In this document: positions 1-16,990 of the stretch, piece after piece
How positions within the stretch are numbered: position 1 is the stretch's first letter
Layout of the letters: every line of letters begins with the position of its first letter
Assembly (NCBI GenBank): GCA_051439605.1
Contig: JBFRWN010000042.1
Coordinates: 1-39,945 of the forward strand
Source: Synechococcus sp.
GTDB taxonomy: Bacteria; Cyanobacteriota; Cyanobacteriia; Thermostichales; PCC-7336
Length of the DNA stretch: 39,945 nt
Direction of reading: 5' to 3'
The notes under the pieces: model-generated
What the model saw: only the letters and a program-made list of their open reading frames with translations
The model's database searches: none
What the model was told of the DNA's origin: nothing
Made by a program: the position numbers and the translations under genes

Positions 1-1593
1 CCCATTGGCAATCATCTGAATTGCTCGAGGAGCACCGGGGTCAAACCCGCCGAAATCCCACGACAGCGGATCTTTAGGATCGACCAGCGAGATGCGGTAG
101 GGGGCCAACGTGACGTAAATCGCCTTGGCATTGGGGTTCACCTTGCGACGATATGCCGCCAGCGCTTGGCTGGGGTGCCGACGACCGGCCCAAGACTCCG
201 AATCCGTCCAAAAGCAGATGACATCAGCCCAGAACTGCTTCTTAATCGCCCAATCGTAGGCCACCGAAGCATCCGTCCCGCCAAAATTATGGCGGTTTGT
301 CTTCTGCATCGCCGAGTGGAAACTATCCCGAGCCGTAATGCCCAGATCCTTGAACGTAGTGGCGAATCCGCGAATGGCGAAGTTATCCTCCGCCTTCGCC
401 GTCACCAATGCCATCACCGTGGCAATTTCGCAGCAGGTCAAGTTCACCGAGCTGACGGTGTAATAGGACATCGACCCCGATACATCCACCGCATGCAAGA
501 AGGTTTTGCCCGTAGGCTCCACTGTCTCGAAAGACAGCTCCAGAGCTTTTTCCAGAATGTCGCAAATGCGGGGGATGGGGTCCCAAGACTTTTTGCTGCG
601 ACCCACGCGCCCGCCGGAGCGGTAGGTCTTCAGCGCCTTGAGGACGTCTATGGGGTGAATGCGACCCTTGCGCAGGCGATCACGACTGGTCAGCACTGTC
701 GCCACCCGCTTCAAGTTCTTGGACTTATGCGCCCGCAACACGCCAATCTCCGTCAGAGAGCCAAGATTGCGCAACAGTGCCCCAATCGGCATGTCCTCAA
801 ACAACAACTGCCATACCCGCTCGTCCATCTTCCCGATGGGAGCCACCATTTCGTGGGTCAAGCGACCCTCGGCGATCGCCATGCAGGTGCTTTCGGGATT
901 GCGCTTCAGCCATTCGTACCACCAGATTTGCGACAGGGGGCCGGTGGGAACCTGCTTGGGCAAGTCCTCCCAGCCATGCACCACCCAGTCGTACAGCGCC
1001 TGATGCTCTGGCGTGGCAGGCTTGGCGTGGAACAATCGCAAGGCATCCCGATTCGTGAATCCGTGCCGTTGCTGGTATTTCAGCAATTGGTATGCCAACT
1101 GCTTCACATCCGGCTTAGACAGCCAGCTTTTCCCGCATTCCCGCACCACTTTGCCGAAACCGCGCAAGGATTTGGTGTAGTTCAACCATTCGTAGAAATG
1201 GCTACCGGTGCGGACGACTTTGGGGAAAATTTCCATGAATGCCCGCTTTGCAGCAGGAGAATCCCCCATCGACAGCAAGACCAGAGCGAAGAGGGGAGCG
1301 CTGTTGTTGATGGAACGGCCATCGCTAGCTGCGACAATTTCGCAAGCGGTGCGATCGGGGTCTTCGTCAACGCAGGCGAGCACTACGTCCGTGAAGTCAC
1401 CCGTCAGATCGTGCTTGTCTGCGTAGTAGGTGCTTTGGGCAGTACCGATCAGCAAGCAGCGGGTGAGCATTTTCCAACTGCCCGGATCGAACATGTAACC
1501 GCCCGATCGCCCCTGTACCATTTCGCGATCGCGCCCCGGAATGGGCTGAGACTGAGGGGTAGCGGTGGGTGAAGTGAAAAATTCGTATGTCAT
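1..1593 (-). CDS. rsr: Ro60/Rsr TROVE-domain RNA-binding protein with C-terminal vWA domain; 3'-partial, continues past the left edge
   Basis: Manual translation from ATG at 1593 (GGAGAAG upstream): MTYEFFTSPTATPQSQPIPGRDREMVQGRSGGYMFD...LTRCLLIGTAQSTYYA...VVRTGSHFYEW...RGFGKVVR...LAYQLLKYQQRHGFTNRDALRLFH...VDVSGSM...FGGTDAS...WTDSESWAG...HPSQALAAYRRKVNPNAK...GFDPGAPRAIQMIANG. These are Ro60-family motifs including a MIDAS DxSxS. The start, MIDAS and window-edge segments share one frame (531 codons). Confidence 0.95.
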   Translation of the reverse strand, partial: MTYEFFTSPTATPQSQPIPGRDREMVQGRSGGYMFDPGSWKMLTRCLLIGTAQSTYYADKHDLTGDFTDVVLACVDEDPDRTACEIVAASDGRSINNSAPLFALVLLSMGDSPAAKRAFMEIFPKVVRTGSHFYEWLNYTKSLRGFGKVVRECGKSWLSKPDVKQLAYQLLKYQQRHGFTNRDALRLFHAKPATPEHQALYDWVVHGWEDLPKQVPTGPLSQIWWYEWLKRNPESTCMAIAEGRLTHEMVAPIGKMDERVWQLLFEDMPIGALLRNLGSLTEIGVLRAHKSKNLKRVATVLTSRDRLRKGRIHPIDVLKALKTYRSGGRVGRSKKSWDPIPRICDILEKALELSFETVEPTGKTFLHAVDVSGSMSYYTVSSVNLTCCEIATVMALVTAKAEDNFAIRGFATTFKDLGITARDSFHSAMQKTNRHNFGGTDASVAYDWAIKKQFWADVICFWTDSESWAGRRHPSQALAAYRRKVNPNAKAIYVTLAPYRISLVDPKDPLSWDFGGFDPGAPRAIQMIANG

Positions 1594-1645
1594 AACGCTT
1601 CTCCGTCCCTGATGGGATATGTGAAAGGTGTCCCCAAACGGGGAA

Positions 1646-1766
1646 GGGAGACGGGCGGGATTCGAACCCGCATCTCGGCGGACAAAGGGGGGTCGTCCAT
1701 AGCGATAACCTTTGTCCTTCGGCCCTAACGGGCGATGGTGCGCTCTACCGTTGAGCTACCGACTCC
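1646..1766 (-). ncRNA. Y-RNA-like tRNA mimic, copy E1 (closest to rsr)
   Basis: Minus strand: (G)GAGTCGG TA GCTC-AACGGTA-GAGC ... GGGCCGAAG ... GGTTATCG ... GAGAT GCGGG-TTCGAAT-CCCGC CCGTCTC C. Has acceptor stem, D arm and T arm, but no 7-nt anticodon loop. Confidence 0.8.
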
Positions 1767-1785
1767 ATAGAGTTTGGAAATGTGT

Positions 1786-1888
1786 TGGACGGGAGGGGAC
1801 TCGAACCCCTGACCGGTAATCCTCGGTCTTCGACCCCGAAAGGTAAGGAGCGATCGAGGTACTGCTCTGCCCACTGAGCTACCCGCCC
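1786..1888 (-). ncRNA. Y-RNA-like tRNA mimic, copy E2
   Basis: GGGCGGG TA GCTC-AGTGGGCA-GAGC ... CTT ACCT-TTCG-GGGT CG AAG ... CGGTC AGGGG-TTCGAGT-CCCCT CCCGTCC A. 7-bp acceptor stem; long bulged hairpin with GTCGAAG in place of the anticodon arm. Confidence 0.85.
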
Positions 1889-1912
1889 AAGATTGTTTCG
1901 ATTGGTGTTGTC

Positions 1913-2035
1913 TGGTGGACGGAGGGGGATTTGAACCCCCATCTCCCGCTTGGAAGGCGATAACCCCGATTCGGCGACCCTTGCGGGTAAATGGGTGAAA
2001 AGGGAAAAGGTGTTCTGCCGTTAAACTATCCGCCC
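1913..2035 (-). ncRNA. Y-RNA-like tRNA mimic, copy E3, encoded CCA end
   Basis: GGGCGGA TA GTTT-AACGGCA-GAAC ... ATTT ACCC-GCAA-GGGT CGCC GAAT ... GGTTATCG ... GAGAT GGGGG-TTCAAAT-CCCCC TCCGTCC A CCA. Confidence 0.85.
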
Positions 2036-2045
2036 AAGTTGTAAC

Positions 2046-2147
2046 TGGTGGACGAGTGGGGAGTCGAACCCCGTCTTGCCATGACCGATAACCTTCACTC
2101 GGCGACCCTTGCGGGTAAGTGATGAATAAAGGGGAAGAAACTCGCCC
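2046..2147 (-). ncRNA. Y-RNA-like tRNA mimic, copy E4, D-armless, encoded CCA end
   Basis: GGGCGAG TTTCTTCCCC... CACTT ACCC-GCAA-GGGT CGCC GAGTG AA GGTTATCG ... GGGG-TTCGACT-CCCC A CTCGTCC A CCA. Acceptor stem and T arm present; no D stem recognisable. Confidence 0.8.
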
Positions 2148-2155
2148 AAGTGGTG

Positions 2156-2284
2156 TGTAGTGGAGGAGGACTCGAACCTCCAGATGACGCAGTTCCAGCG
2201 ATAACCCTCACTCTTCGACCCAATGGGTAAGGTTTGAACGAGGCAATTCGACTGCCGCCTTTACCAATTTGGCCACCCACTACA
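2156..2284 (-). ncRNA. Y-RNA-like tRNA mimic, copy E5 (first in the array)
   Basis: TGTAGTGGG TG GCC-AAATTGGTAAA-GGC G GCAGT ... CTT ACCC-ATT-GGGT CG AAG ... GGTTATCG ... ACTGC GTCATCT GGAGG-TTCGAGT-CCTCC TCCACTACA. The 5-bp anticodon-stem equivalent GCAGT/ACTGC encloses a 57-nt insert. Confidence 0.85.
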
Positions 2285-2353
2285 GGTGTTGCGATTCGGT
2301 TCGCTTGGCTTTCGCCGCCCGTCCCTCATCGACATCCCAAGACTAAGGGCGGT

Positions 2354-2454
2354 AGTTGCCCCCATTCGAATTTGAAGAATGTCACCTCAAACGCATACGC
2401 TACAACGGATTGCAGTTAGGGGGGCATGTTGAAGTTGGGGGTACCCCCTAACTT
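2354..2454. promoter_or_regulatory. Candidate operator boxes (GGGGGYA x4) in the divergent Y-RNA/rsr and NACHT intergenic region
   Basis: TGCCCCC 2357-2363, AGTTAGGGGGGCA 2414-2426, near-palindrome AAGTTGGGGG-TA-CCCCCTAACTT 2432-2454. Function is inferred from position only. Confidence 0.4.
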
Positions 2455-2472
2455 TGTTTGCGGATTCACTTA

Positions 2473-5349
2473 ATGCCAAAGCAAAGCTACGGACCATTGA
2501 CCAAAGAGCGATCGCGATTGCTCCTGTTTTCCCTGCTAGATTTCGCCAATGACAGTCTGGATACAGACGAGAGACAGCTGGATCTGCTGCGATCGCACCT
2601 ACAAACCCACTGGCAATCCTCCACCCGCCTAGTCGTTCGTACCAAACTTCGCTATCTGCAAGCCCTTTCCAAACTGGCCAGTGCGGGGGAGGGCCTCTCC
2701 CTACCCCACATCAAGGCAGCTCTCAAACATCTGGCCGAGTTTGTCGGCATTTTGGAAGACAACCGCACCGTCAAGCGGGGTTCCGACCAATGGCATTTCA
2801 CTCTGAGATGGTGGCGCGATCGCTGGGAACGGGAGGCTAATCTAGCTCACTTCGATCGCGCATGGGAAGCCAACCGACCGGATCGCGTCCAAGAGTCCTC
2901 TAACCCAGAGCAAGAGACTGAGACAGCAAGCAAAATCGGCGATCGCTGGCAACAGCTATGCAGAGAAGCCTTAGACACTCGACTGACCAGTAACCCTATG
3001 ACTGCTGGGGATGGAATGGCGTTTGAGTTGGGGGAAGTGTACGTCCCGCTGGGGGTAGCCGAGCGAAAGTCGAGATCGCAGGAGGAAGAAGACTGCGAGG
3101 CTCGGGTGTACGAACCGGCAGAGCTGCTAGATCGGCTCAAGGCATCTGAGGAACCCGTTCGGGCAGCAATTGTAGGGGAACCGGGGGCAGGGAAGACGAC
3201 TCTGTTGCAGCAGTTGGCGATCGCGCTGTTGCAGACTCCCGATGCGATGCCCATTTGGATTTCGCTGGCGGATTTGGAAGGGCAATCGTTAGAGACCTAT
3301 CTGACGCAGACTTGGCTGCGCCAAGCGCTGCGAGTTTTTCAGGTGCCGACTGAGACAGTGGAACAGTTTGCAGCTCAATTTCAGCAGGGACGCGTGTGGT
3401 TGCTATTGGATGCGGTCGATGAGTTGGGGGGAGAGGGTAGCGGTGCGATCGCGTGGCTGGCAAGGGAGTTGAAGGGCTGGCTTTCTGAGGCCCATGTGGC
3501 ACTTACCTGTCGCCTCAATATTTGGGATGCCGGAAAAAATACGCTGGCCACGTGCCAAACCTTTCGCTGCATCAGTTTTAGCGATGGGACGGGTTCGGGC
3601 AGCAATCAGGTGCAGGAGTTTATTCGGCGCTGGTTTAAAGATGATGAAGCAAGGGGGGAGAAGCTTTGTCGGCGGTTAGAGCAGCGCAGCCTGCGGCGCA
3701 TTCGAGAGCTGGTGCGCCATCCGCTATACCTGGCCCTGCTGTGCTGCACTTGGGCATCTGCAAAGGGAAAATTACCCGCGACGAAAGCAAGCTTGTACCG
3801 CCAGTTTGCGATCGCCCATTACGAGTGGAAGCAGGATTTATTTCCCACAACGTTGGTTCAGCGGCGGGAGCTCAATAAAGCGCTGTCAGAACTGGCACTA
3901 GCCGCTATGAAGCAGTCTCCCCCCAGCTTCCGCTTGCTCCGCTCCTTCATCGATCGCCAATTCCCCGATCGCCCAGAATTGCTTACTCTAGCGCTGCAAC
4001 TGGGTTGGCTGAACAAAGTAGGCTGTTCGGATGTCCATGCCGAACCGATTTACTCCTTTTATCACCCCACGTTTCAAGAGTATTTTGCCGCTCGGGCCAT
4101 CTCAACCTGGCAAGAGTTCTTTGCGCTAGAGACAGCGGCAGGAACTGTCGCCCCCATCTTCATGCCCATCTGGCACGAGACAATTTTGCTGTGGGTGGGG
4201 CGGGACGACATAGCCGCAGAAGATAAGACCGAATTCACCGATCGGCTCGTTTCTTTCAACGATTGCTGCGGCGGGCTATACAGTTACCGCACAAAGTTTC
4301 TGGCAGCTCGCGGCCTGACAGAAATGAGCGAGTATCCCGGCGCTGACGCTCTCGTGAAACACCTTATCCGGTGGCGTTTTGCGAAGCCCGATCGTGTCCC
4401 TCAACTACCCGGTCCGATCGTCGAGCAAGCGGGCATCGCCCTTTCGCGCACCGATCGGAGTTTAAGCATTCCCGCCCTAGAATCCTTTCTCCAAACCGCC
4501 AACCAACCTCTAGAAAAGTGGCTGGCGGCCCACAGCTTGGGCAAAAACTACGACCCTGGCAACCCAATTGCCATCTCCACCCTCACCCAGCTGTTGCAAC
4601 AGGAGCACCCTCCACTGTTTCGCCTCAACTTCATCCGTAGCTTAGAAGCCGTCGATCCGGGCAATCCTCTAGTGCAGGTGGGACTAATCGACATCCTCAA
4701 AACAGAAAGTAAACCCAGCATCTTGCGCAAAGCCGCCAACCGTCTAGCCAAGGTCGATCCCGACAATCCCCTCGCGCGCAATACCTTGAAGGTGTTGCTA
4801 TCCCAAACCGACGATCCCCGAGTGCGCAGCAATATCCTGACCAACCTACAACAACTTGACCATCCGCAGTCCCCAACGATCTCCAACGGAAACGCACCCA
4901 CAAAATCTGCTAAGCGCCAAAAAAACGAACCCGATCGAGATAAGCTAATTGCCAACCTATTAACCAAGTTGGACAGTAGCAACGATCTAGCCCACCGCAT
5001 CCGAGTTGCAGGAAAACTAGGCCAATGTTGTCCGGACCATCCGCAGGTCACGACTATCCTCCTGGATGTCCTCAGCACCAGTCGCAGCAAAGCCATGCTC
5101 AAGTCTGCAGTGGACCAATTGCGAGATGTAATGGAGGGCGATCGCCTGCTCGATCTCATCCCAGCCGTGCGCGATATCTACCTGAGTAATCCCGCCAAAT
5201 CGGAGCGATCGCGCCAATCCTACCGCCTCCTGTGGTACTGGTCCGCCACTATTCCCCTGCCAGATTTCCAGCGCCAATGGCAACTTCCCGTCACCAAATT
5301 CCGCAACCCCGTTCGCCCACCTGAGATCTCGAAAACCTCCCCTCCATAG
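2473..5349 (+). CDS. NACHT (STAND) NTPase with uncharacterised N-terminal domain and C-terminal HEAT-like repeats
   Basis: Walker A GEPGAGKTT, Walker B VWLLLDAVDE, HPLYLALLC, YSFYHPTFQEYFAA, and repeated 'DPGNP' helical units. ATG 2473 preferred over TTG 2458. Confidence 0.9.
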   Translation: MPKQSYGPLTKERSRLLLFSLLDFANDSLDTDERQLDLLRSHLQTHWQSSTRLVVRTKLRYLQALSKLASAGEGLSLPHIKAALKHLAEFVGILEDNRTVKRGSDQWHFTLRWWRDRWEREANLAHFDRAWEANRPDRVQESSNPEQETETASKIGDRWQQLCREALDTRLTSNPMTAGDGMAFELGEVYVPLGVAERKSRSQEEEDCEARVYEPAELLDRLKASEEPVRAAIVGEPGAGKTTLLQQLAIALLQTPDAMPIWISLADLEGQSLETYLTQTWLRQALRVFQVPTETVEQFAAQFQQGRVWLLLDAVDELGGEGSGAIAWLARELKGWLSEAHVALTCRLNIWDAGKNTLATCQTFRCISFSDGTGSGSNQVQEFIRRWFKDDEARGEKLCRRLEQRSLRRIRELVRHPLYLALLCCTWASAKGKLPATKASLYRQFAIAHYEWKQDLFPTTLVQRRELNKALSELALAAMKQSPPSFRLLRSFIDRQFPDRPELLTLALQLGWLNKVGCSDVHAEPIYSFYHPTFQEYFAARAISTWQEFFALETAAGTVAPIFMPIWHETILLWVGRDDIAAEDKTEFTDRLVSFNDCCGGLYSYRTKFLAARGLTEMSEYPGADALVKHLIRWRFAKPDRVPQLPGPIVEQAGIALSRTDRSLSIPALESFLQTANQPLEKWLAAHSLGKNYDPGNPIAISTLTQLLQQEHPPLFRLNFIRSLEAVDPGNPLVQVGLIDILKTESKPSILRKAANRLAKVDPDNPLARNTLKVLLSQTDDPRVRSNILTNLQQLDHPQSPTISNGNAPTKSAKRQKNEPDRDKLIANLLTKLDSSNDLAHRIRVAGKLGQCCPDHPQVTTILLDVLSTSRSKAMLKSAVDQLRDVMEGDRLLDLIPAVRDIYLSNPAKSERSRQSYRLLWYWSATIPLPDFQRQWQLPVTKFRNPVRPPEISKTSPP

Positions 5350-10142: not shown

Positions 10143-11366
10143 TCAGGAGAGATTTTGAAGTTCCTTCAGTACTGATTTCGCCAACAGCTTATTTTTAAAC
10201 CACACCACCGGCACCGGAATATCCTGCACCTTCACCCCAGCCTTCTCCAAATTCAACCGTTCCGACACCGCCAGAATTAAGTCGTCGCGCTGAGCCTGCC
10301 TCACCTGTGCAAATTTCTTGCGCAAATACTCCGGTCGCCAGTAACCCACGATTTCTAGCAGCAGCGATCGCCCATCTGGATGGACCAACCGAAAATCCGG
10401 AATCATCACGCTGCCCGGAATCGGAATTAAATCCACCTCCCGCTCCAGCCTCCAGTCCGTCTTTAGCTTCTGCCACCCCGCCGCAAACGACTCCTCCACC
10501 ATGCTGTCAAACGGCTTCCCAGGCGGATAGTGGGTCACCAATCCGCAGTTGGAATCTAACGAATATCGATAGGGCTTGTACTCCTGCGTGTAGAAATCTT
10601 TCACCCGCAATGTGGCCTCCATGTTCCACTTTGTGACATGCAACAGTGCCGGTAATAGCTTAGCGATCGCCAGTCCGTATCGCGTACTGGGCTTAAACAG
10701 GCTTGTAGGTCCATCCACCGTAATTGTGAACCCGCGATCGGCATCCCCCTCGATATACGACATCAATTGGAAGAGTTTGAGATAGCGAAACAACAGCTTG
10801 TATTCCCCCGGATCGTTGCGATGGGCATTCAGCGTCATCTGTGTCGCCTTGTAAAAAATCCCCTGCACTTGCGACAGATTAAACCGATGAATCAACGCTT
10901 CCGGTGTGGGCGGCTCAAACTGCGTCAGAATCCGGTTTTCTTGCAAATCCGCATATAGCCCCTTGCGAATTTCCTCTGGAAATACCTCGCGATCGCACTC
11001 CTGTGTCAGCTCTGTCGCCAGCGTCGCCAGCGTTCCCTCAGCATTCTGAGGAATGGGCGTTGTCTTGGCCGCTAACCCAAACACCCGCTGGCGCAACAGC
11101 GGCGGTTCGATGGGGCTGACAATGTCGAACGTGCAAAAGCTGCTTTTGAGAATGTGGGCCAGCCCCCGCCGCAGTCGGTAATCGGGGCTATCGCCCTCTA
11201 GCTCTTGCAGGAGCCGGTCCAGATGCCCCTGCGTCTCTCCTTGGGCGGATTCGGACGTAGAGATCAGGTCAGAGGCGATTGCCAAATGCTTGCGATCCAG
11301 CTGAAGCCGCTGCGGCACCACCGTCTCGCCACTGCGTCGAAAACTCAATAACTCGCTGGGTAACAA
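10143..11366 (-). CDS. DUF790 family protein (Bax1-like PD-(D/E)xK endonuclease)
   Basis: LPSELL start, LYADL, DGPTSLF...TRYG, FDSMVE...F, VMIPDFRL...LEIVGYWRPEYL. TTG 11366 preferred over 11453. Confidence 0.9.
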   Translation of the reverse strand: MLPSELLSFRRSGETVVPQRLQLDRKHLAIASDLISTSESAQGETQGHLDRLLQELEGDSPDYRLRRGLAHILKSSFCTFDIVSPIEPPLLRQRVFGLAAKTTPIPQNAEGTLATLATELTQECDREVFPEEIRKGLYADLQENRILTQFEPPTPEALIHRFNLSQVQGIFYKATQMTLNAHRNDPGEYKLLFRYLKLFQLMSYIEGDADRGFTITVDGPTSLFKPSTRYGLAIAKLLPALLHVTKWNMEATLRVKDFYTQEYKPYRYSLDSNCGLVTHYPPGKPFDSMVEESFAAGWQKLKTDWRLEREVDLIPIPGSVMIPDFRLVHPDGRSLLLEIVGYWRPEYLRKKFAQVRQAQRDDLILAVSERLNLEKAGVKVQDIPVPVVWFKNKLLAKSVLKELQNLS

Positions 11367-11493
11367 ATCTATGGCTCTCGGGCGATCGACTGCTGCCATT
11401 CTATAGAGGGTTTCCCGCATAGACAGCCGCTCGGCTCTACCAAGCTTTCCCATAAGCTAGGCTGGGAAATGCTGTTTCCGTTCATCGCCCACT

Positions 11494-14103
11494 ATGGCAG
11501 TCATCGATATCGACCGACTGATCGACACCGACATCATGCGGCCTGCCCGCTATTTGGGCAATGAATTTGGAGCCGTCCATCGGGACTGGAACAGCGCCAC
11601 CGTCCGTTGGGTGCTGACTTATCCCGAGCTATACGAAGTGGGAGCCTCCAACTCCGGTCACATCATTCTCTACAACATCCTCAACGCCCAACCCCGCCAA
11701 CTGTGCGATCGCACCTACCTGCCCGGTAACGACCTCAGCGATCGTATGAAAGCCAATAATGTCCCCCTGTTCGCCGTCGAATCTCGCCGCGATATCAAAG
11801 AATTCGACCTCATTGGCTTCAGCCTCGCCTACGAACTAGGGGGCAGCAACGTTTTAGAAATGCTCAGCCTAGCGGGTATTCCCCTCACCTGGCAGGAGCG
11901 CAATACCTTCGATGTCGCCATCTACCCGCTGGTATTTGCTGGCGGTCCCACTGCCACCTCTAATCCAGAGCCGTTTGCAGAATTCTTCGATTTCTTTGTA
12001 TTGGGGGATGGAGAGGAAGTTCTGCCAGAAATTGGCTTGGTGGTTGAAGAAGGACTCGCAGCCGGTCTGACCCGCCGCGAACTGCTGCTGGACCTAGCCC
12101 AAGTGCCAGGGGTGTACGTACCGCAGTTTTACGACGGTCTAGAGCCGAAGCCGTTAGTGGCAGGGGTTCCTGAGAAAGTGGTGCGCCGCGTCGCTACCCC
12201 GATGCCCCAATATGCCATTGGCGGCCCAGTGCCCTATGTCGAAACTGTTCACGATCGCCTCAGTCTGGAAGTGCGTCGCGGCTGTACCCGAGGCTGTCGC
12301 TTTTGTCAGCCGGGCATGCTCACCCGCCCTGCCCGCGACACCGAACCGGAGGATGCAATCGAAGCGATTGCCAGCGGTCTGCAAAAAACCGGCTACGACG
12401 AATTCTCCCTCTCCTCCCTCAGCTGCTCTGACTATCTGGCCTTACCTGCCGTAGGAGCGGAACTGCACAATCGCCTCGGTCCCACCAACATCAATTTGTC
12501 TCTGCCCAGTCAGCGGGTGGACCGCTTCGACGAAAATATTGCCGCCATGATGGGGGGCACTCGCCGCCCCACCCTCACCTTTGCCCCCGAAGCAGGTACC
12601 CAGCGGATGCGGGATGTGATTAATAAGGGCTTGACCAACGCAGAATTGGTGCGGGGGGTTAAGACGGCTGCGGAACAGGGATGGGACAAGGTCAAACTCT
12701 ATTTCATGATTGGCCTGCCCGGAGAAACTGATGTAGATGTGGTAGGCATTGCCGAAACCATTGCCATGCTGCAGCGGGAATGTCGCCCTGCCAGCGGTCG
12801 CAAACTCAAGGTGAACGTCACCATTTCCAACTTCACTCCCAAACCCCATACCCCCTTCCAGTGGCATCGGGTGGATCACGCCGATATCGAGAAGAAGCAA
12901 AAGCTCTTGAAGGAGCAATTCCGCAAAATGCGGGGGGTGAAGGCTAACTTCACTGACATTCGCTTCTCCATGCTGGAGGACTTTATCGGTAAAGGCGATC
13001 GCCGTCTCAGCCGCACTATCTATCAAGCTTGGGCCAACGGAGCTGGTATGGATAGCTGGTGGGAGGGAATCGATGCCGCCTACAACGCCTGGGTCACCGC
13101 CTACCGCCAAAGCGTCCCCGATGCTGTCTTAGCGGGTACGGATGAGCATCCACAGTTACCCACTTTTTCCTACGGTATTGACGACCCCCTCCCCTGGGAT
13201 CGCATCGATACGGGGATTAGTAAAGATTGGTTGAAGCAGGACTGGGCCAACGCGCTAGAAGCCGCCACCGTCCCCGATTGCTCGTTCGAAAGCTGTTCCC
13301 ACTGTGGTATCTGCGGTGTGGATTTCGGCCACAATATTGTCATTCCCGCCCTGCCCGTACCGGCGATCGCCGAGAAGTCCACGGGGGCAGAACGCCCAAA
13401 GGCTGTCCAGCGGTTCCGCATTACATTTGCAAAACAGGGGAACATGCGCTTGGTGGGGCACCTCGATTTACTGCGGCTGTGGGAGCGTGCCTGCCGTCGA
13501 GCCCAACTGCCCCTCGCCTTCAGCGGAGGCTTTCACCCCTCCCCCCGCATCTCCACCGCCAGTGCTCTTGCCCTCGGCCACGTCAGCAAAGGGGAAGTTT
13601 TGGACATTGAACTGATTGAAAAGCTTCCCATCGCATCGCTTGAAGCAGTGTTATCTGCGCAGCTTCCTTCAGAGCTGGAGATTGTGAACATCACCGAACT
13701 GGCCTTAGATGCCCCCTCGGCCACTAAAGCACTGGTGGCGGCAGACTATCGCCTTGAGATAGAATCCAAACAAGTAGAAGGCACTCACCCGAGAGAAGCG
13801 CACTCGTTTGTTGATTGGGATGGGGCGATCGCGGTAATTCTTTCCCAACAGGAAATCTGGCTGGATAAAGTGTCCAAATCCGGCAAAGCCTACCGCGTCA
13901 ATGGCCGTGAATTGCTCTATCAATTGTCTCTCGAGCATGGCGAAGAAAACCAGGCAACCCTAAGCTACCGAGGCTGCTGTCGCAATGATGGCACGATGTT
14001 GAGGCCGGAACAGGTGGTAATCATGCTGGGTCAATATCTACCCAAAAGCTTAGATGTCCAACTGAGATTTGTAGAGCGCCAGCAACTCATTTTTCAAAGT
14101 TGA
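11494..14103 (+). CDS. B12-binding radical SAM protein (TIGR03960-type) fused to the radical SAM-linked domain (TIGR03936/DUF2344-type)
   Basis: PARYLGNE, RRGCTRGCRFC CxxxCxxC, TFAPEAG, KLYFMIGLPGE, KPHTPFQW; C-terminal GHLDLLR...FSGGFHPSP. Confidence 0.92.
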   Translation: MAVIDIDRLIDTDIMRPARYLGNEFGAVHRDWNSATVRWVLTYPELYEVGASNSGHIILYNILNAQPRQLCDRTYLPGNDLSDRMKANNVPLFAVESRRDIKEFDLIGFSLAYELGGSNVLEMLSLAGIPLTWQERNTFDVAIYPLVFAGGPTATSNPEPFAEFFDFFVLGDGEEVLPEIGLVVEEGLAAGLTRRELLLDLAQVPGVYVPQFYDGLEPKPLVAGVPEKVVRRVATPMPQYAIGGPVPYVETVHDRLSLEVRRGCTRGCRFCQPGMLTRPARDTEPEDAIEAIASGLQKTGYDEFSLSSLSCSDYLALPAVGAELHNRLGPTNINLSLPSQRVDRFDENIAAMMGGTRRPTLTFAPEAGTQRMRDVINKGLTNAELVRGVKTAAEQGWDKVKLYFMIGLPGETDVDVVGIAETIAMLQRECRPASGRKLKVNVTISNFTPKPHTPFQWHRVDHADIEKKQKLLKEQFRKMRGVKANFTDIRFSMLEDFIGKGDRRLSRTIYQAWANGAGMDSWWEGIDAAYNAWVTAYRQSVPDAVLAGTDEHPQLPTFSYGIDDPLPWDRIDTGISKDWLKQDWANALEAATVPDCSFESCSHCGICGVDFGHNIVIPALPVPAIAEKSTGAERPKAVQRFRITFAKQGNMRLVGHLDLLRLWERACRRAQLPLAFSGGFHPSPRISTASALALGHVSKGEVLDIELIEKLPIASLEAVLSAQLPSELEIVNITELALDAPSATKALVAADYRLEIESKQVEGTHPREAHSFVDWDGAIAVILSQQEIWLDKVSKSGKAYRVNGRELLYQLSLEHGEENQATLSYRGCCRNDGTMLRPEQVVIMLGQYLPKSLDVQLRFVERQQLIFQS

Positions 14104-14191
14104 CGATCGCTTTTCTAAGAGAATATCTAGATTTTCTGGAATTTTCTTAAAACTTACTCAAGTTCTCTGCAAACATTTCACAGCATGGCGC

Positions 14192-14929
14192 TATAATTTT
14201 GTTCATGCTAGCTATGCACGAGTGGGGCGAAGCCATTGCATTCTGGCATCTGGCAGCAACATGCTTGAATCTGCCATCGAGAGACTGGAGCTAGGTTTAA
14301 TACCGCGATGTCTTGCCCTCGGTAGGTGGGTCGAGGTTATGAAGGCCTAAGGTTATTGGGCCACCCGACTGGCCGCTGACCCAGCCGTCTGGGTCCTGGG
14401 TAAAAATCGAGGTATTTTTCGATAGGAATTTTCCTGCTCTAGATGTGAATTGGCGAGCTGGCTTGCCGATTTAGGATGCTTGTAGCATCCGTCTTCTTTT
14501 GATGTAAAGCAGCGGCAGTGGGTTCACTGTCCTTCAAAGACTGCTATTTTCTATCAGCATTGTTTGAGAAGTATCAAGCGGCTGCGGCCTCCCAGTCCCA
14601 CTGTATTAGGGGGATGAGTAATGGCCTGAAGCTTGCGGTTGGCAAGCCTCTCACCATTTATCTGCTGTTGGGAAGTGACGGAGTTCCAGGCTGACTTGTT
14701 TGTAGCACGGCCTGTATTCATTCCATCCCCAACTACTGCAATATCTGGCGCATTTAGGGGGAAGTGACGCAGAGCTTACCTATTGGCTCCAGACGAAATA
14801 CGGCATCGTTAAAGTCTGTTCGGGCCCAGCCTGCAGCCCCTTGCCACTCAGGTTGCCAGCTCATCGAATCCACATCATCCTGCCCCATTGCGGGCTACCT
14901 GCAGGTTTCCTGCAATCCTTGAGGACTCT
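14192..14929 (+). promoter_or_regulatory. Putative rne promoter (-10 TATAAT) and long structured 5' leader
   Basis: TATAAT at 14192-14197 in an 826-bp gap between the radical SAM stop and the rne ATG; hairpins such as GGATGCT-TGT-AGCATCC 14474-14490; GAGGA RBS 14921-14925. Confidence 0.5.
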
Positions 14930-16990
14930 ATGTCGAAGCAAATTATTATCGGAGAGCAGCACCGCATCGCTGCAGTATTTTCAGAAGATCGCATTCAGGA
15001 ATTAGTTGTTGCCAGCGGACACCACCAGGTTGGTGACGTTTATGTTGGGTTAGTGGAAAACGTTCTCCCCAGTATCGACGCGGCATTTATCAATATTGGT
15101 AACCCAGAAAAGAACGGGTTTATCCACGTCAGCGACCTCGGCCCCGCCCGCCTCAAGCGCAGCAGCGCCCACATTACCGAGTTAGTCACCCCCCAACAAA
15201 AGGTGTTGGTACAGGTAATGAAGGAGCCCACCGGCAATAAAGGGCCGCGTCTGACAGGCAACTTATCTTTCCCTGGCCGTTACCTCGTGCTGATGCCCTC
15301 CGGACGAGGGGTTAACTTGTCCTCTCGCATCCGCAATGAGGAAGAACGCAACCGCCTCAAGTCCCTTGCCATCCTGATAAAGCCCCCACAAATGGGACTC
15401 ATGGTTCGCACCGAAGCGGACGGAATGCCGGAAGAAAGCATCATTGAAGACCTCGAAATTCTCAAGAAGCAGTGGGAAAACATTCAGCAGGAGTACAACT
15501 CTACCCGCTCCCCCAGTCTGCTCAATCGCGATATTGACTTCATTCAACGGGTTTTGCGGGATGCGTTTAACGATAACGTCAACCGCATTGTGGTGGACTC
15601 TCAGGAGGGGGTGACCCGCGTTCGCAAGCACTTGCAAAGTTGGAATAAAGGTCGCATCCCCTCTGGTGTCGCCATCGACCTGCACAGGGAATCCACCCCC
15701 ATTTTTGACTATTACCGCGTCAACGCTGCTATTCGCGAAGCACTGCGCCCCCGAGTCGATCTGCCCTCCGGTGGATACATTATTATTGAACCCACCGAGG
15801 CGTTAACTGTGGTGGACGTCAACTCTGGTTCGTTCACGCGATCGGCCACCTCCCGCGAGACGGTGTTGTGGACCAACTGCGAGGCAGCAACAGAAATTGC
15901 CCACCAAATGCGCCTGCGCAATATTGCTGGGGTGATTGTGGTGGACTTCATCGATATGGATTCCCGCCGCGATCAGCTGCAAGTGCTAGAGCATTTCAAC
16001 AAGGCCCTGCGAACGGATAAGGCTCGCCCACAAATCGCCCAACTGTCCGAACTGGGTCTCGTGGAACTAACCCGCAAGCGCCAGGGACAGAGCCTGTACG
16101 AAGTATTCGGTCGCCCCTGTCCTACCTGCGAAGGATTGGGACTTTTGGCTCACCTTCCCGGTCAACATCCCGAACTCAATCAAACTCCCTTCGACCATTC
16201 CGTTACATATGCCTCTGCGGTTCTGGCCGCTGATGTCTCTGAGACCCCAGAAGTCACCCCCGAATCTCGCATTGGGGTGGGTGGAGAACGCAATGGGGGT
16301 TACCGCCGTCGAGGACGTTACGGCAGCAGTACCCCTAGCCGCGCTGTCGCCAGCTCATCGATCCCCGAAAATCTCTATCAGGGTCGCCGCCGCCGCACCA
16401 CTGCTGCACCCTCTACACAGCGCGTTGAGCCCCCGACAAAAATTGTTTCCGAACCCACCCCCTTAGCCTCCGACACTAGCGAAACCCCTGCAGGGCCGAC
16501 ACCACCTCCCACAAAAAAATCCCCCCGCAAGGTGATTCAGGTGGAGATGACTCCCCTACAACAGCAGGTTTACTCAGAAATGGGTATTTCACCGCTGGCC
16601 CTGCTGGATGAACCCATCAAAACGGGTCGGGACACTGTCGTAGCAGTGACCTTACCGGGCCAACCTCTAGCCGAGGTGATGGAGGCCGAAATAGACGAGG
16701 ATACTAAACCTGACGAAAGGCATGCAGAGGGGAGCGATCGCGATGCTGGGGTTCTGGATCTCAGTCAGTTGGAGCTGTCTCCAGACATTACCAAACAGGC
16801 TAACATCGACGACATTGCCGAAGAGGGAATTCCTCCAGAAGGCTTTAGTAAAGTAGAGCCACCTGAACTGAGTGCTGGGGAACAGGGTGAATTAGATGGT
16901 AGCCAAGAGGATCGTAGCGCCGACGTGAAGCCCAAGAATCAATCCCCCGCTGCCTCCCGTCGTCGCAGGTCTCGTAGCACTAGCGAGTAG
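14930..16990 (+). CDS. rne: Ribonuclease E (cyanobacterial Rne/Rng family)
   Basis: MSKQIIIGEQHRIAAVF start, S1 domain, VVDVNSGSF, DFIDM, CPTCEG zinc link, disordered C-terminal half ending in an Arg-rich RRRRSRST motif. Confidence 0.97.
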   Translation: MSKQIIIGEQHRIAAVFSEDRIQELVVASGHHQVGDVYVGLVENVLPSIDAAFINIGNPEKNGFIHVSDLGPARLKRSSAHITELVTPQQKVLVQVMKEPTGNKGPRLTGNLSFPGRYLVLMPSGRGVNLSSRIRNEEERNRLKSLAILIKPPQMGLMVRTEADGMPEESIIEDLEILKKQWENIQQEYNSTRSPSLLNRDIDFIQRVLRDAFNDNVNRIVVDSQEGVTRVRKHLQSWNKGRIPSGVAIDLHRESTPIFDYYRVNAAIREALRPRVDLPSGGYIIIEPTEALTVVDVNSGSFTRSATSRETVLWTNCEAATEIAHQMRLRNIAGVIVVDFIDMDSRRDQLQVLEHFNKALRTDKARPQIAQLSELGLVELTRKRQGQSLYEVFGRPCPTCEGLGLLAHLPGQHPELNQTPFDHSVTYASAVLAADVSETPEVTPESRIGVGGERNGGYRRRGRYGSSTPSRAVASSSIPENLYQGRRRRTTAAPSTQRVEPPTKIVSEPTPLASDTSETPAGPTPPPTKKSPRKVIQVEMTPLQQQVYSEMGISPLALLDEPIKTGRDTVVAVTLPGQPLAEVMEAEIDEDTKPDERHAEGSDRDAGVLDLSQLELSPDITKQANIDDIAEEGIPPEGFSKVEPPELSAGEQGELDGSQEDRSADVKPKNQSPAASRRRRSRSTSE

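Follow-up and report, generated by a model that had tools for sequence, protein, structure and literature searches.

Analysis of a 39,945-nucleotide (nt) stretch of DNA from Synechococcus sp. (contig JBFRWN010000042.1; hereafter the window), which begins at a contig end, revealed five co-oriented minus-strand units of 99-127 nt within 690 nt 5′ of rsr, the gene for the Ro60 orthologue Rsr (the array lies 53-690 nt upstream). These units were designated E1 (nearest to rsr) to E5, and the observation of a five-unit array is confirmed. Every unit has a Y-RNA-type module (a GNCGAA-type strand and GGUUAUCG) with a Ro-type helix capped by a loop of 3-4 nt, set within what appears to be a transfer RNA (tRNA) body. 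We consider it probable, at roughly three chances in four, that the units are tRNA-shaped relatives of YrlA, a bacterial Y RNA, likely co-transcribed with rsr and released, in the manner of tRNAs, by RNase P and RNase Z, with a predicted binding to Rsr via the capped helix. The topology is the new part; the genes themselves had already been catalogued in 2014.

The original prediction, made from the letters of the window, had placed five co-oriented units before rsr, and this was borne out, the last unit ending 53 nt before the ATG. The acceptor stems formed by each unit's own ends, the T loops, the four D arms, the cap loops and the repeated motifs that it listed were likewise located where it had put them. 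The units are separated by spacers of 9, 13, 27 and 20 nt (counted from the discriminator), and the two acceptor strands within each unit pair at 7/7, 7/7, 7/7, 7/7 and 6/7 positions from E5 to E1. The T loops are UUCGAGU, UUCGACU, UUCAAAU, UUCGAGU and UUCGAAU, a D arm is present in E5, E3, E2 and E1 and absent from E4, and the cap loops are GUUA, UUCG, GCAA, GCAA and AUU from E1 to E5. On the plus strand, cgataacc begins at 1703, 1958, 2086 and 2199, the E2 variant being GGAUUACCG, and an identical 20-mer is common to E3 (1971-1990) and E4 (2099-2118). The lower capped helix in the window is UUACCC / GGGU-C-GA, and the common cyanobacterial form is CUUGCCU / AGGC-C-GA, with a bulged C. The motif GNCGAAN0-1G was exact in E1 (GCCGAAG) and in E2 and E5 (GUCGAAG). 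Coordinates of the units and of the adjoining features are collected in Table 1.

Table 1. The rsr gene, the five units and the flanking segments in the window (R1, covariance model described in the text)
Feature	Position	Strand	Length and class	Characteristics
rsr (Ro60 orthologue)	1..1593	minus		ATG at 1593; Pfam vWA_Ro60 1.1e-36, TROVE 8.2e-18
E1-rsr gap	1594..1646	minus	53 nt	small hairpin CCCC-GUUU-GGGG (1643-1632) without U tract; GGAG Shine-Dalgarno-like site
E1	1647..1765	minus	119 nt, type II	acceptor GAGUCGG/CCGUCUC with one U.U mismatch; discriminator C; D and T arms
E2	1786..1888	minus	103 nt, type I	acceptor GGGCGGG/CCCGUCC (G3.U70); discriminator A; CCA not encoded
E3	1916-2035, CCA 1915-1913	minus	120 nt + CCA, type I	acceptor GGGCGGA/UCCGUCC (G3.U70); discriminator A
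E4	2049-2147, CCA 2048-2046	minus	99 nt + CCA, type I without D arm	acceptor GGGCGAG/CUCGUCC (G3.U70); discriminator A
E5	2157-2283 (R1 model 2157-2282), A2156	minus	type I	8-bp acceptor 2283-2276/2164-2157; no CCA
Array leader	2284..2460	minus		genus-conserved, 81% column identity, three genomes

A normal anticodon arm (5 bp with a 7-nt loop) is absent right after position 26 in these units, and an insert of 41-63 nt is located there. In E2, the anticodon stem continues directly as the module (1859-1814; CCUCG...ACCU-UUCG-GGGU-C-GAAG...CGAGG-AUUACCG). The module of E3 lies at about 2005-1958 with the cap ACCC-GCAA-GGGU, that of E4 at about 2132-2086, and that of E5 at 2243-2199 (CCUCGUUC...ACCC-AUU-GGGU-C-GAAG-AGUGAGG-GUUAUCG); in E5, in addition, G2283 pairs with C2157 to complete the 8-bp acceptor stem, and the D arm is of the long-D-loop kind. 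The lack of a D arm in E4 is shared by its orthologue in a same-genus genome (L002:796-892). E1 is built differently, with a module at about 1736-1679 in which a capped lower hairpin GCCC-GUUA-GGGC is followed by GCCGAAG, and an upper stem GGACAAAGG (1717-1709) pairs with a downstream CCUUUGUCC (1687-1679). The proposal that a hairpin replaces the anticodon region is an oversimplification: E3, alone in the array, keeps a displaced anticodon-arm-like hairpin after the module (1960-1945; 7-nt loop CUUCCAA), which the Rfam tRNA model in its third match aligned as the anticodon arm, and E1 represents a second architecture. It was also noticed that the small hairpin following GGUUA looks like an anticodon arm in many loci, with a 7-nt loop of the form C-U-NNN-A-A/C, and has a 5-nt loop in other units; it may represent a vestige of the anticodon arm or else correspond to the 'V' arm of YrlA.

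The order of parts was compared over a wider sample. Of 41 relatives, 9 have Rsr, as do 42 of 401 genomes sampled phylum-wide, although in 7 of these 42 the protein is a distant one (34-37% identity); 2.5 kb of upstream sequence was fetched for 40 phylum-wide rsr loci. A T-arm pattern gave 87 T arms in the 42 loci with high-identity Rsr, and the 7 nt after each T stem were matched for pairing with every 7-mer in the 150 nt upstream and the 150 nt downstream. The upstream partner, belonging to the same unit, was better in 73 of the 87 cases, tied in 9 and worse in 5; except in five cases, its distance from the T arm was 61-113 nt, with an invariant U8 and the D arm directly after it, a register that is independent of the pairing criterion. 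In addition, the array in the window opens with an acceptor 5′ strand and closes with an acceptor 3′ strand, with no half units over, so that nothing remains unassigned when the units are taken in tRNA order, whereas the order described for YrlA would orphan two halves.

This latter order (Chen et al. 2014), in which the GNCGAA strand is followed by the T arm, a long 'acceptor stem-loop' (in this case the spacer plus both acceptor strands), the next D arm and the next UUACCC strand, is the frame of the published seed and of Table S1 of that work. The Rfam YrlA model (RF02553) also aligned in that frame, its weak alignments (26.3 and 23.7 bits) crossing unit borders by taking one unit's T arm, the spacer and the next unit's D arm; moreover, the Ro strands are conserved between units and could pair across them, and the acceptor 3′ strand of E3 pairs with the E2 5′ strand at 7/7 positions as well, so that the E3-E2 junction cannot separate the two topologies. 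Such an arrangement would, however, put the RNA ends inside GNRA- or UNCG-type loops of 3-4 nt and leave orphan halves at the first and last units. It also entails the poorer cross-unit acceptor pairing found in the 73 cases (in the window, 4, 6, 7 and 5 of 7 positions pair with the 5′ strand of the following unit vs 7, 7, 7, 7 and 6 for the own strands), places several published coordinates over the rsr start, and gives YrlA scores far under the cut-off of 69, with none at the cut-off in 18 rsr loci. The trait of YrlA that its Ro helix is made from the RNA termini and its acceptor-like stem is closed by a loop was not seen in the units; the reverse was observed, i.e., a capped Ro helix and an acceptor stem formed by the own ends. 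We assign the published order only a very small probability for these genes.

For comparative structure, the 87 T arms gave 81 units, of which 61 were left after near-duplicate removal and 50 were aligned as type I; the 11 excluded from this alignment were 8 E1-like units and 3 odd or short ones. RNAalifold on the type I alignment predicted 27 pairs, 24 with double changes. In a fuller structure of 36 pairs, 93.6% of cells were paired over the 50 type I units, vs 80.5% when shuffled and 41-55% when the partners were slid, and both-side changes occurred in 29 of the 36 pairs, the counts for the acceptor and T stems being inflated, as these stems were partly chosen for pairing. Helices that had not been used for selection covaried as well: 7/9 pairs of the upper stem, 4/6 of the capped lower helix and 2/2 of the 2-bp anticodon-stem remnant. 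The upstream-vs-downstream test and the fixed U8 register are likewise unbiased. Throughout the 50-unit alignment U8, A14, G18 and the T-loop bases (UUC..A) were invariant and A21 nearly so, and a C for U at alignment column 70 in two units supports the register in which G85 is paired.

The order of a type I unit that emerged from this alignment comprises 1) a 5′ part with acceptor stem, U8, D arm, position 26, two anticodon-stem pairs and an A-rich linker, 2) a middle part with the 5′ strand of the upper stem, the capped lower helix, a bulged C, the GA(A/C)G strand, the 3′ strand of the upper stem and a GUUA junction, and 3) a 3′ part with a small hairpin starting with UCG, a variable loop of five bases, the T arm and, last, the acceptor 3′ strand with the discriminator. 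Type I (E2-E5) is a long hairpin and type II (E1) a three-way arrangement; in the 27 aligned type II units, the lower hairpin is capped, and covariation is seen between the upper stem and its pairing partner on the 3′ side of GGUUAUCG. The cap loops are GNRA in 31 of the 50 type I and 17 of the 27 type II units. Taken together, the tRNA order and the capped helix of the units are supported by these comparisons, as is the free acceptor end with a loop-closed Ro helix that the original prediction had proposed, in which covariation, the acceptor test and the strict linkage to rsr concur. As a separate observation, the type II units most distal to rsr in Nostocales-like arrays (loci L013, L014, L016, L018-L022, L025-L027, L029, L030, L034 and L037) have T loops without the UUC signature (e.g. 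UAAAAAU and UGCAAAU), and these units keep acceptor stems of 7-8 bp and, in most cases, an encoded CCA.

A covariance model, R1, was trained on the 50 type I units (E5, E3 and E2 were in the training set; E4 and E1 were not). Over the whole window it matched exactly the five units, with scores of 98.7 (E3), 91.4 (E5), 83.5 (E2), 57.1 (E1) and 56.2 bits (E4). In the genome from which the window derives, the long R1 matches were these five only, and 31 others were ordinary tRNAs of 72-89 nt scoring no more than 51 bits. With a threshold of E<=1e-11, R1 found units in 9 of the 41 related genomes, which were the same 9 that carry rsr (9/9 vs 0/32 of those without it), all of them on the rsr contig. 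A total of 132 R1 matches over 48 loci were obtained, from which 8 were dropped (5 in loci with distant Rsr, namely four tRNA-sized and one weak 165-nt match; 2 of 87 nt; and 1 partial). Among the 42 high-identity loci, some units in which are weak (28-35 bits), one locus had no unit, 4 had one, 8 had two, 13 had three, 12 had four, 2 had five and 2 had six; hence 41 of the 42 have 1-6 units, as a scan of cyanobacterial rsr neighbourhoods suggested in the original prediction now documents, and 29 have 3-6. Paralogue classes of the units are kept across genera. The tRNA-shaped units are general among cyanobacterial rsr loci, and the five-unit array of the window is at the high end without being unique. 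The suggestion that the five-member array is the new aspect thus did not survive, also because 2-3 adjacent 'YrlA' entries per cyanobacterium are given in Table S1 of Chen et al. (2014).

As for the family models, a check with native Rfam models, also advised beforehand, gave a divided outcome. The tRNA model was passed end to end by E2 (46.6 bits) and E1 (41.9 bits; cut-off 29), across inserts of 41 and 63 nt, and it caught 14 units in the 18 related loci, none of which had a YrlA match at its cut-off; the YrlA model stayed below its cut-off in the window also. Matches to the Rfam tmRNA (transfer-messenger RNA), permuted-tmRNA and other models in 1500-2500 were to T arms only, tmRNA reaching 16 bits, and no metazoan Y_RNA family was among the matches listed at E<=10 for the same region. 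The tRNA scores, together with the anticodon-arm-like hairpin of E3, would suit the view that the units are tRNA genes that serve in decoding, or degenerate remnants of a tRNA array, with a removable insertion or intron. This is highly improbable, as the insert is the most conserved part and bears the Ro motif, is situated at 26/27 or replaces the anticodon loop instead of lying at 37/38, and is, at about 45-60 nt, too short for a group I intron. Furthermore, 42 ordinary tRNA genes are present in the genome, none of them was recently copied into a unit (BLAST gave generic D- and T-arm matches only), the units occur only beside rsr, and ARAGORN called no tRNA among them.

The tRNA-shaped YrlA relatives would be expressed together with rsr. 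The array and rsr may form one transcript, since no terminator-like site lies between them (none was found on the RNA strand in a promoter and terminator scan of 1500-2600, including between E1 and rsr) and the distance between the last unit and the start codon is short and constant in relatives. As measured from the last T arm, this distance is -81 to -94 in the relatives of the window and -123 in many Nostocales-like loci. The acceptor stem of 7-8 bp, the 5-bp T stem and the encoded CCA suggest that RNase P and RNase Z would release the units, as in tRNA-mRNA operons. By analogy with the terminal helix of other Y RNAs, the capped bulged helix is predicted to bind the outer face of the Rsr ring, given that the GNCGAA strand is homologous to that of YrlA RNAs that co-immunoprecipitate with Rsr. 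The tRNA body with its free 3′ end might then recruit or gate a partner of Ro60 in RNA surveillance or repair, as does the non-Ro part of other Y RNAs.

The co-orientation of the array with rsr, the fixed short distance and the missing terminator between E1 and rsr would also fit an array that yields no separate RNAs but serves as a folded 5′ leader of the rsr mRNA, to which Rsr would bind to regulate its own expression. This has a small probability in our view, considering that the units carry complete tRNA processing signals and encoded CCA, that their paralogue classes are conserved across genera, and that Y RNAs were discrete wherever tested (Chen et al. 2014, PMC4201824). The two ideas are not exclusive, for the cuts that release the RNAs would also trim the mRNA.

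Several results weigh against the reading of the units as tRNA-shaped, separately processed YrlA relatives. ARAGORN, run on the window, reported 0 tRNAs, and the Rfam YrlA scores are below the cut-off. The Ro strands of E3 (GCCGAAUCG) and E4 (GCCGAGUG) deviate from the strict GNCGAAN0-1G, the E3-E2 junction is ambiguous as described, the covariation counts of the acceptor and T stems are inflated by their selection, and related genomes are non-independent samples. Single-sequence folding energies were unexceptional (z = -2.6, -1.7, -0.6, -1.6 and -0.6) and the minimum-energy fold of E2 is unlike the conserved fold; therefore, we relied on comparative structure. No promoter-like and no sigma-70-type match was detected in the scan of 1500-2600. 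In public RNA data, one marine-sediment metatranscriptome run yielded one 161-nt contig matching 1996-2150 (85% likeness), which runs from E4 through the spacer into the 5′ portion of E3, differs by a single base change and a single deletion, and is uninformative on ends, strand and expression.

The relationship to known Y RNAs was examined against the literature. YrlA is defined by the GNCGAAN0-1G motif together with tRNA-like D, T and acceptor parts, and in Mycobacterium smegmatis an open acceptor end arises secondarily, RNase P cutting in the 7-bp acceptor stem and CCA being added (Chen et al. 2014, PMC4201824). The units share with the YrlA of Salmonella Typhimurium and M. smegmatis the position adjoining rsr, the GNCGAA-type strand, a GGUUAYC-like junction, the small 'V' hairpin, the T arm, an acceptor-like stem, the D arm and the tRNA invariants (PMC4201824; bioRxiv 10.1101/312249). 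They differ in that the Ro helix of YrlA is made from the 5′ and 3′ ends of the RNA and its acceptor is closed by a loop, whereas in the units the Ro helix is capped by 3-4 nt and the acceptor is open already in the gene. Homology of the units with YrlA is supported by the sequence comparison.

Cyanobacterial sequences are present in the published YrlA-II seed (Chen et al. 2014, Supplementary text 2), from Calothrix PCC 7507, Stanieria PCC 7437 and Gloeocapsa PCC 73106, where the cyanobacterial strand GGUCGAA..GAGGGUUAUCG is aligned with the YrlA of Salmonella and M. smegmatis and the RNA is drawn as Ro strand, T arm, '...CCA', a long spacer and the next D arm. According to the legend to Fig. 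S1 of that work, the ends were undetermined and the structures had been modified to look like other YrlAs; the cyanobacterial RNAs were drawn with a 'longer acceptor stem'. In its Table S1, 1-3 'YrlA' per cyanobacterial genome are entered, in many cases with adjoining coordinates (Stanieria has three such entries and several Nostoc have two), and several coordinates overlap the rsr start by 20-42 nt (distances -20 to -42); Nostoc punctiforme PCC 73102 and Synechococcus PCC 7002 are among the cyanobacteria that it covers. Contiguous entries that overlap the rsr start would be expected from a frame displaced by half a unit. The entries, which match in strand and in their place upstream of rsr, are almost certainly the same RNA genes, each spanning two units that adjoin; that paper does not describe their tRNA order or capped helix, nor does it distinguish two architectures or mention alanine-type ends. 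A permuted YrlA from Gloeobacter, mentioned in the original prediction, was not found, the word itself being absent from Chen et al. 2014 (main text and Table S1) and from Wang et al. 2018. Only these two papers bear on topology, and a 2026 tRNA-mimic preprint and a 2025 paper on phage Ro60 are silent on it. No paper describing the tRNA order of cyanobacterial Y RNAs was found in the full-text literature, the coverage of which does not include the 2020 Annual Review on bacterial Ro60.

Similarity to other Y RNAs extends to the module. In metazoan Y RNAs and Yrn1 of Deinococcus radiodurans, as in the units, a bulged lower helix that seems conserved on both strands is followed by an upper stem; the bulged-C register of the units is presumably like that of metazoan Y RNAs. 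In contrast to the units, with their capped helix and tRNA body, those RNAs form the helix from their termini and have no complete tRNA body.

The acceptor ends of E2, E3 and E4 have G1-C72, G2-C71, G3.U70 and A73, with CCA encoded in E3 and E4. With CCA, this is the textbook identity set of alanyl-tRNA synthetase (AlaRS), which tmRNA shares with tRNA-Ala; no tmRNA was called by ARAGORN and the units have no tag reading frame, the likeness to tmRNA residing in the alanine-like acceptor end of E2-E4. CCA was encoded in 57 of 129 units, in 20 after a 7-bp stem plus discriminator and in 37 after an 8-bp stem plus one base, and 2 of 42 ordinary tRNA genes in the genome of the window have a clear CCA. 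The 7-bp register occurs in the lineage of the window and the 8-bp register (G-1:C73, then A, then CCA) in Nostocales-like genomes. In 37 distinct CCA-bearing stems, with pairs numbered from the CCA end, G.U was counted 0, 0, 15, 4, 1, 2 and 3 times at pairs 1 to 7, respectively, and the discriminator was A in 26, vs 6 G.U at pair 3 in 46 stems without CCA, kinship of the genomes overstating the independence of all these counts. Alanine-type ends (G3.U70, A73 and CCA) were found in 20 of 41 rsr loci, those other than the window being L002, L003, L008, L010, L015, L016, L019-L023, L025, L026, L028, L030, L032, L035, L040 and L042. Descent from an alanine-type ancestor is a sufficient explanation for such ends. 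Nevertheless, the G3.U70 wobble is retained in two stem registers among covarying neighbours, which makes a possible charging with alanine worth testing. That the Ro60 of cyanobacteria acts with a set of tRNA-form Y RNAs, some of them charged with alanine by AlaRS, is an unlikely extension; if true, a Y RNA charged with an amino acid would connect the Ro60 ring with EF-Tu, the ribosome or tRNA repair, as tmRNA links rescue to translation.

The rsr open reading frame runs for 531 codons to the contig edge, its stop codon lying beyond window position 1, and over residues 1-531 the protein is 66-84% identical to the Rsr of relatives. In a same-genus genome (G001), rtcB (L003:139-1464; Pfam RtcB 2e-124) lies 27 nt 3′ of rsr on the same strand, comparable to the Salmonella operon order rsr-yrlBA-rtcBA. 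A search for rtcB in the assembly of the window gave as sole find a 33%-identical paralogue on another contig, the rsr contig stopping at the 3′ end of rsr. Upstream of the array, the leader contains a hairpin AAGUUAGGGGG-UA-CCCCCAACUU (about 2462-2438), G5/C5, with a compensatory change among three same-genus genomes, and a third segment, CCCCCCUAACU, is complementary to the first hairpin arm, giving a possible alternative-pairing switch. A conserved stretch of the leader, TTCGAA..TAGTCT, could be a candidate promoter. A sixth unit or YrlB-like RNA in 2284-2460 was considered and rejected, the GGCGAAAG located there being unconserved in the genus and R1 giving no match.

On the plus strand, the divergent neighbour (2458-5349) encodes a 963-amino-acid STAND NTPase with EAD4 (4.7e-32), NACHT and HEAT repeats, a domain set that is that of conflict or defence sensors. 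Farther away, a DUF790 gene (minus strand), a radical-SAM/DUF2344 gene and an RNase E/G gene follow one another in 10143-16990; they look like an ordinary housekeeping context.

Bacterial Y RNAs have been described as circularly permuted tRNA mimics, the origin and the tRNA-like function of which are open. If the units are as proposed here, a phylum-level set in plain tRNA order, with the Ro helix capped and the acceptor end free and in many units CCA-encoded, would represent an unpermuted form to be weighed against the published idea that YrlA originated from a dimeric tRNA precursor. Annotation would be corrected as well, in that the Rfam YrlA model misses the units, the tRNA model detects them in part, and each set of published coordinates extends over two of them. 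In addition, the role of the tRNA part would become testable by the standard biochemistry of tRNAs, i.e., cutting by RNase P and RNase Z, addition of CCA and charging by AlaRS.

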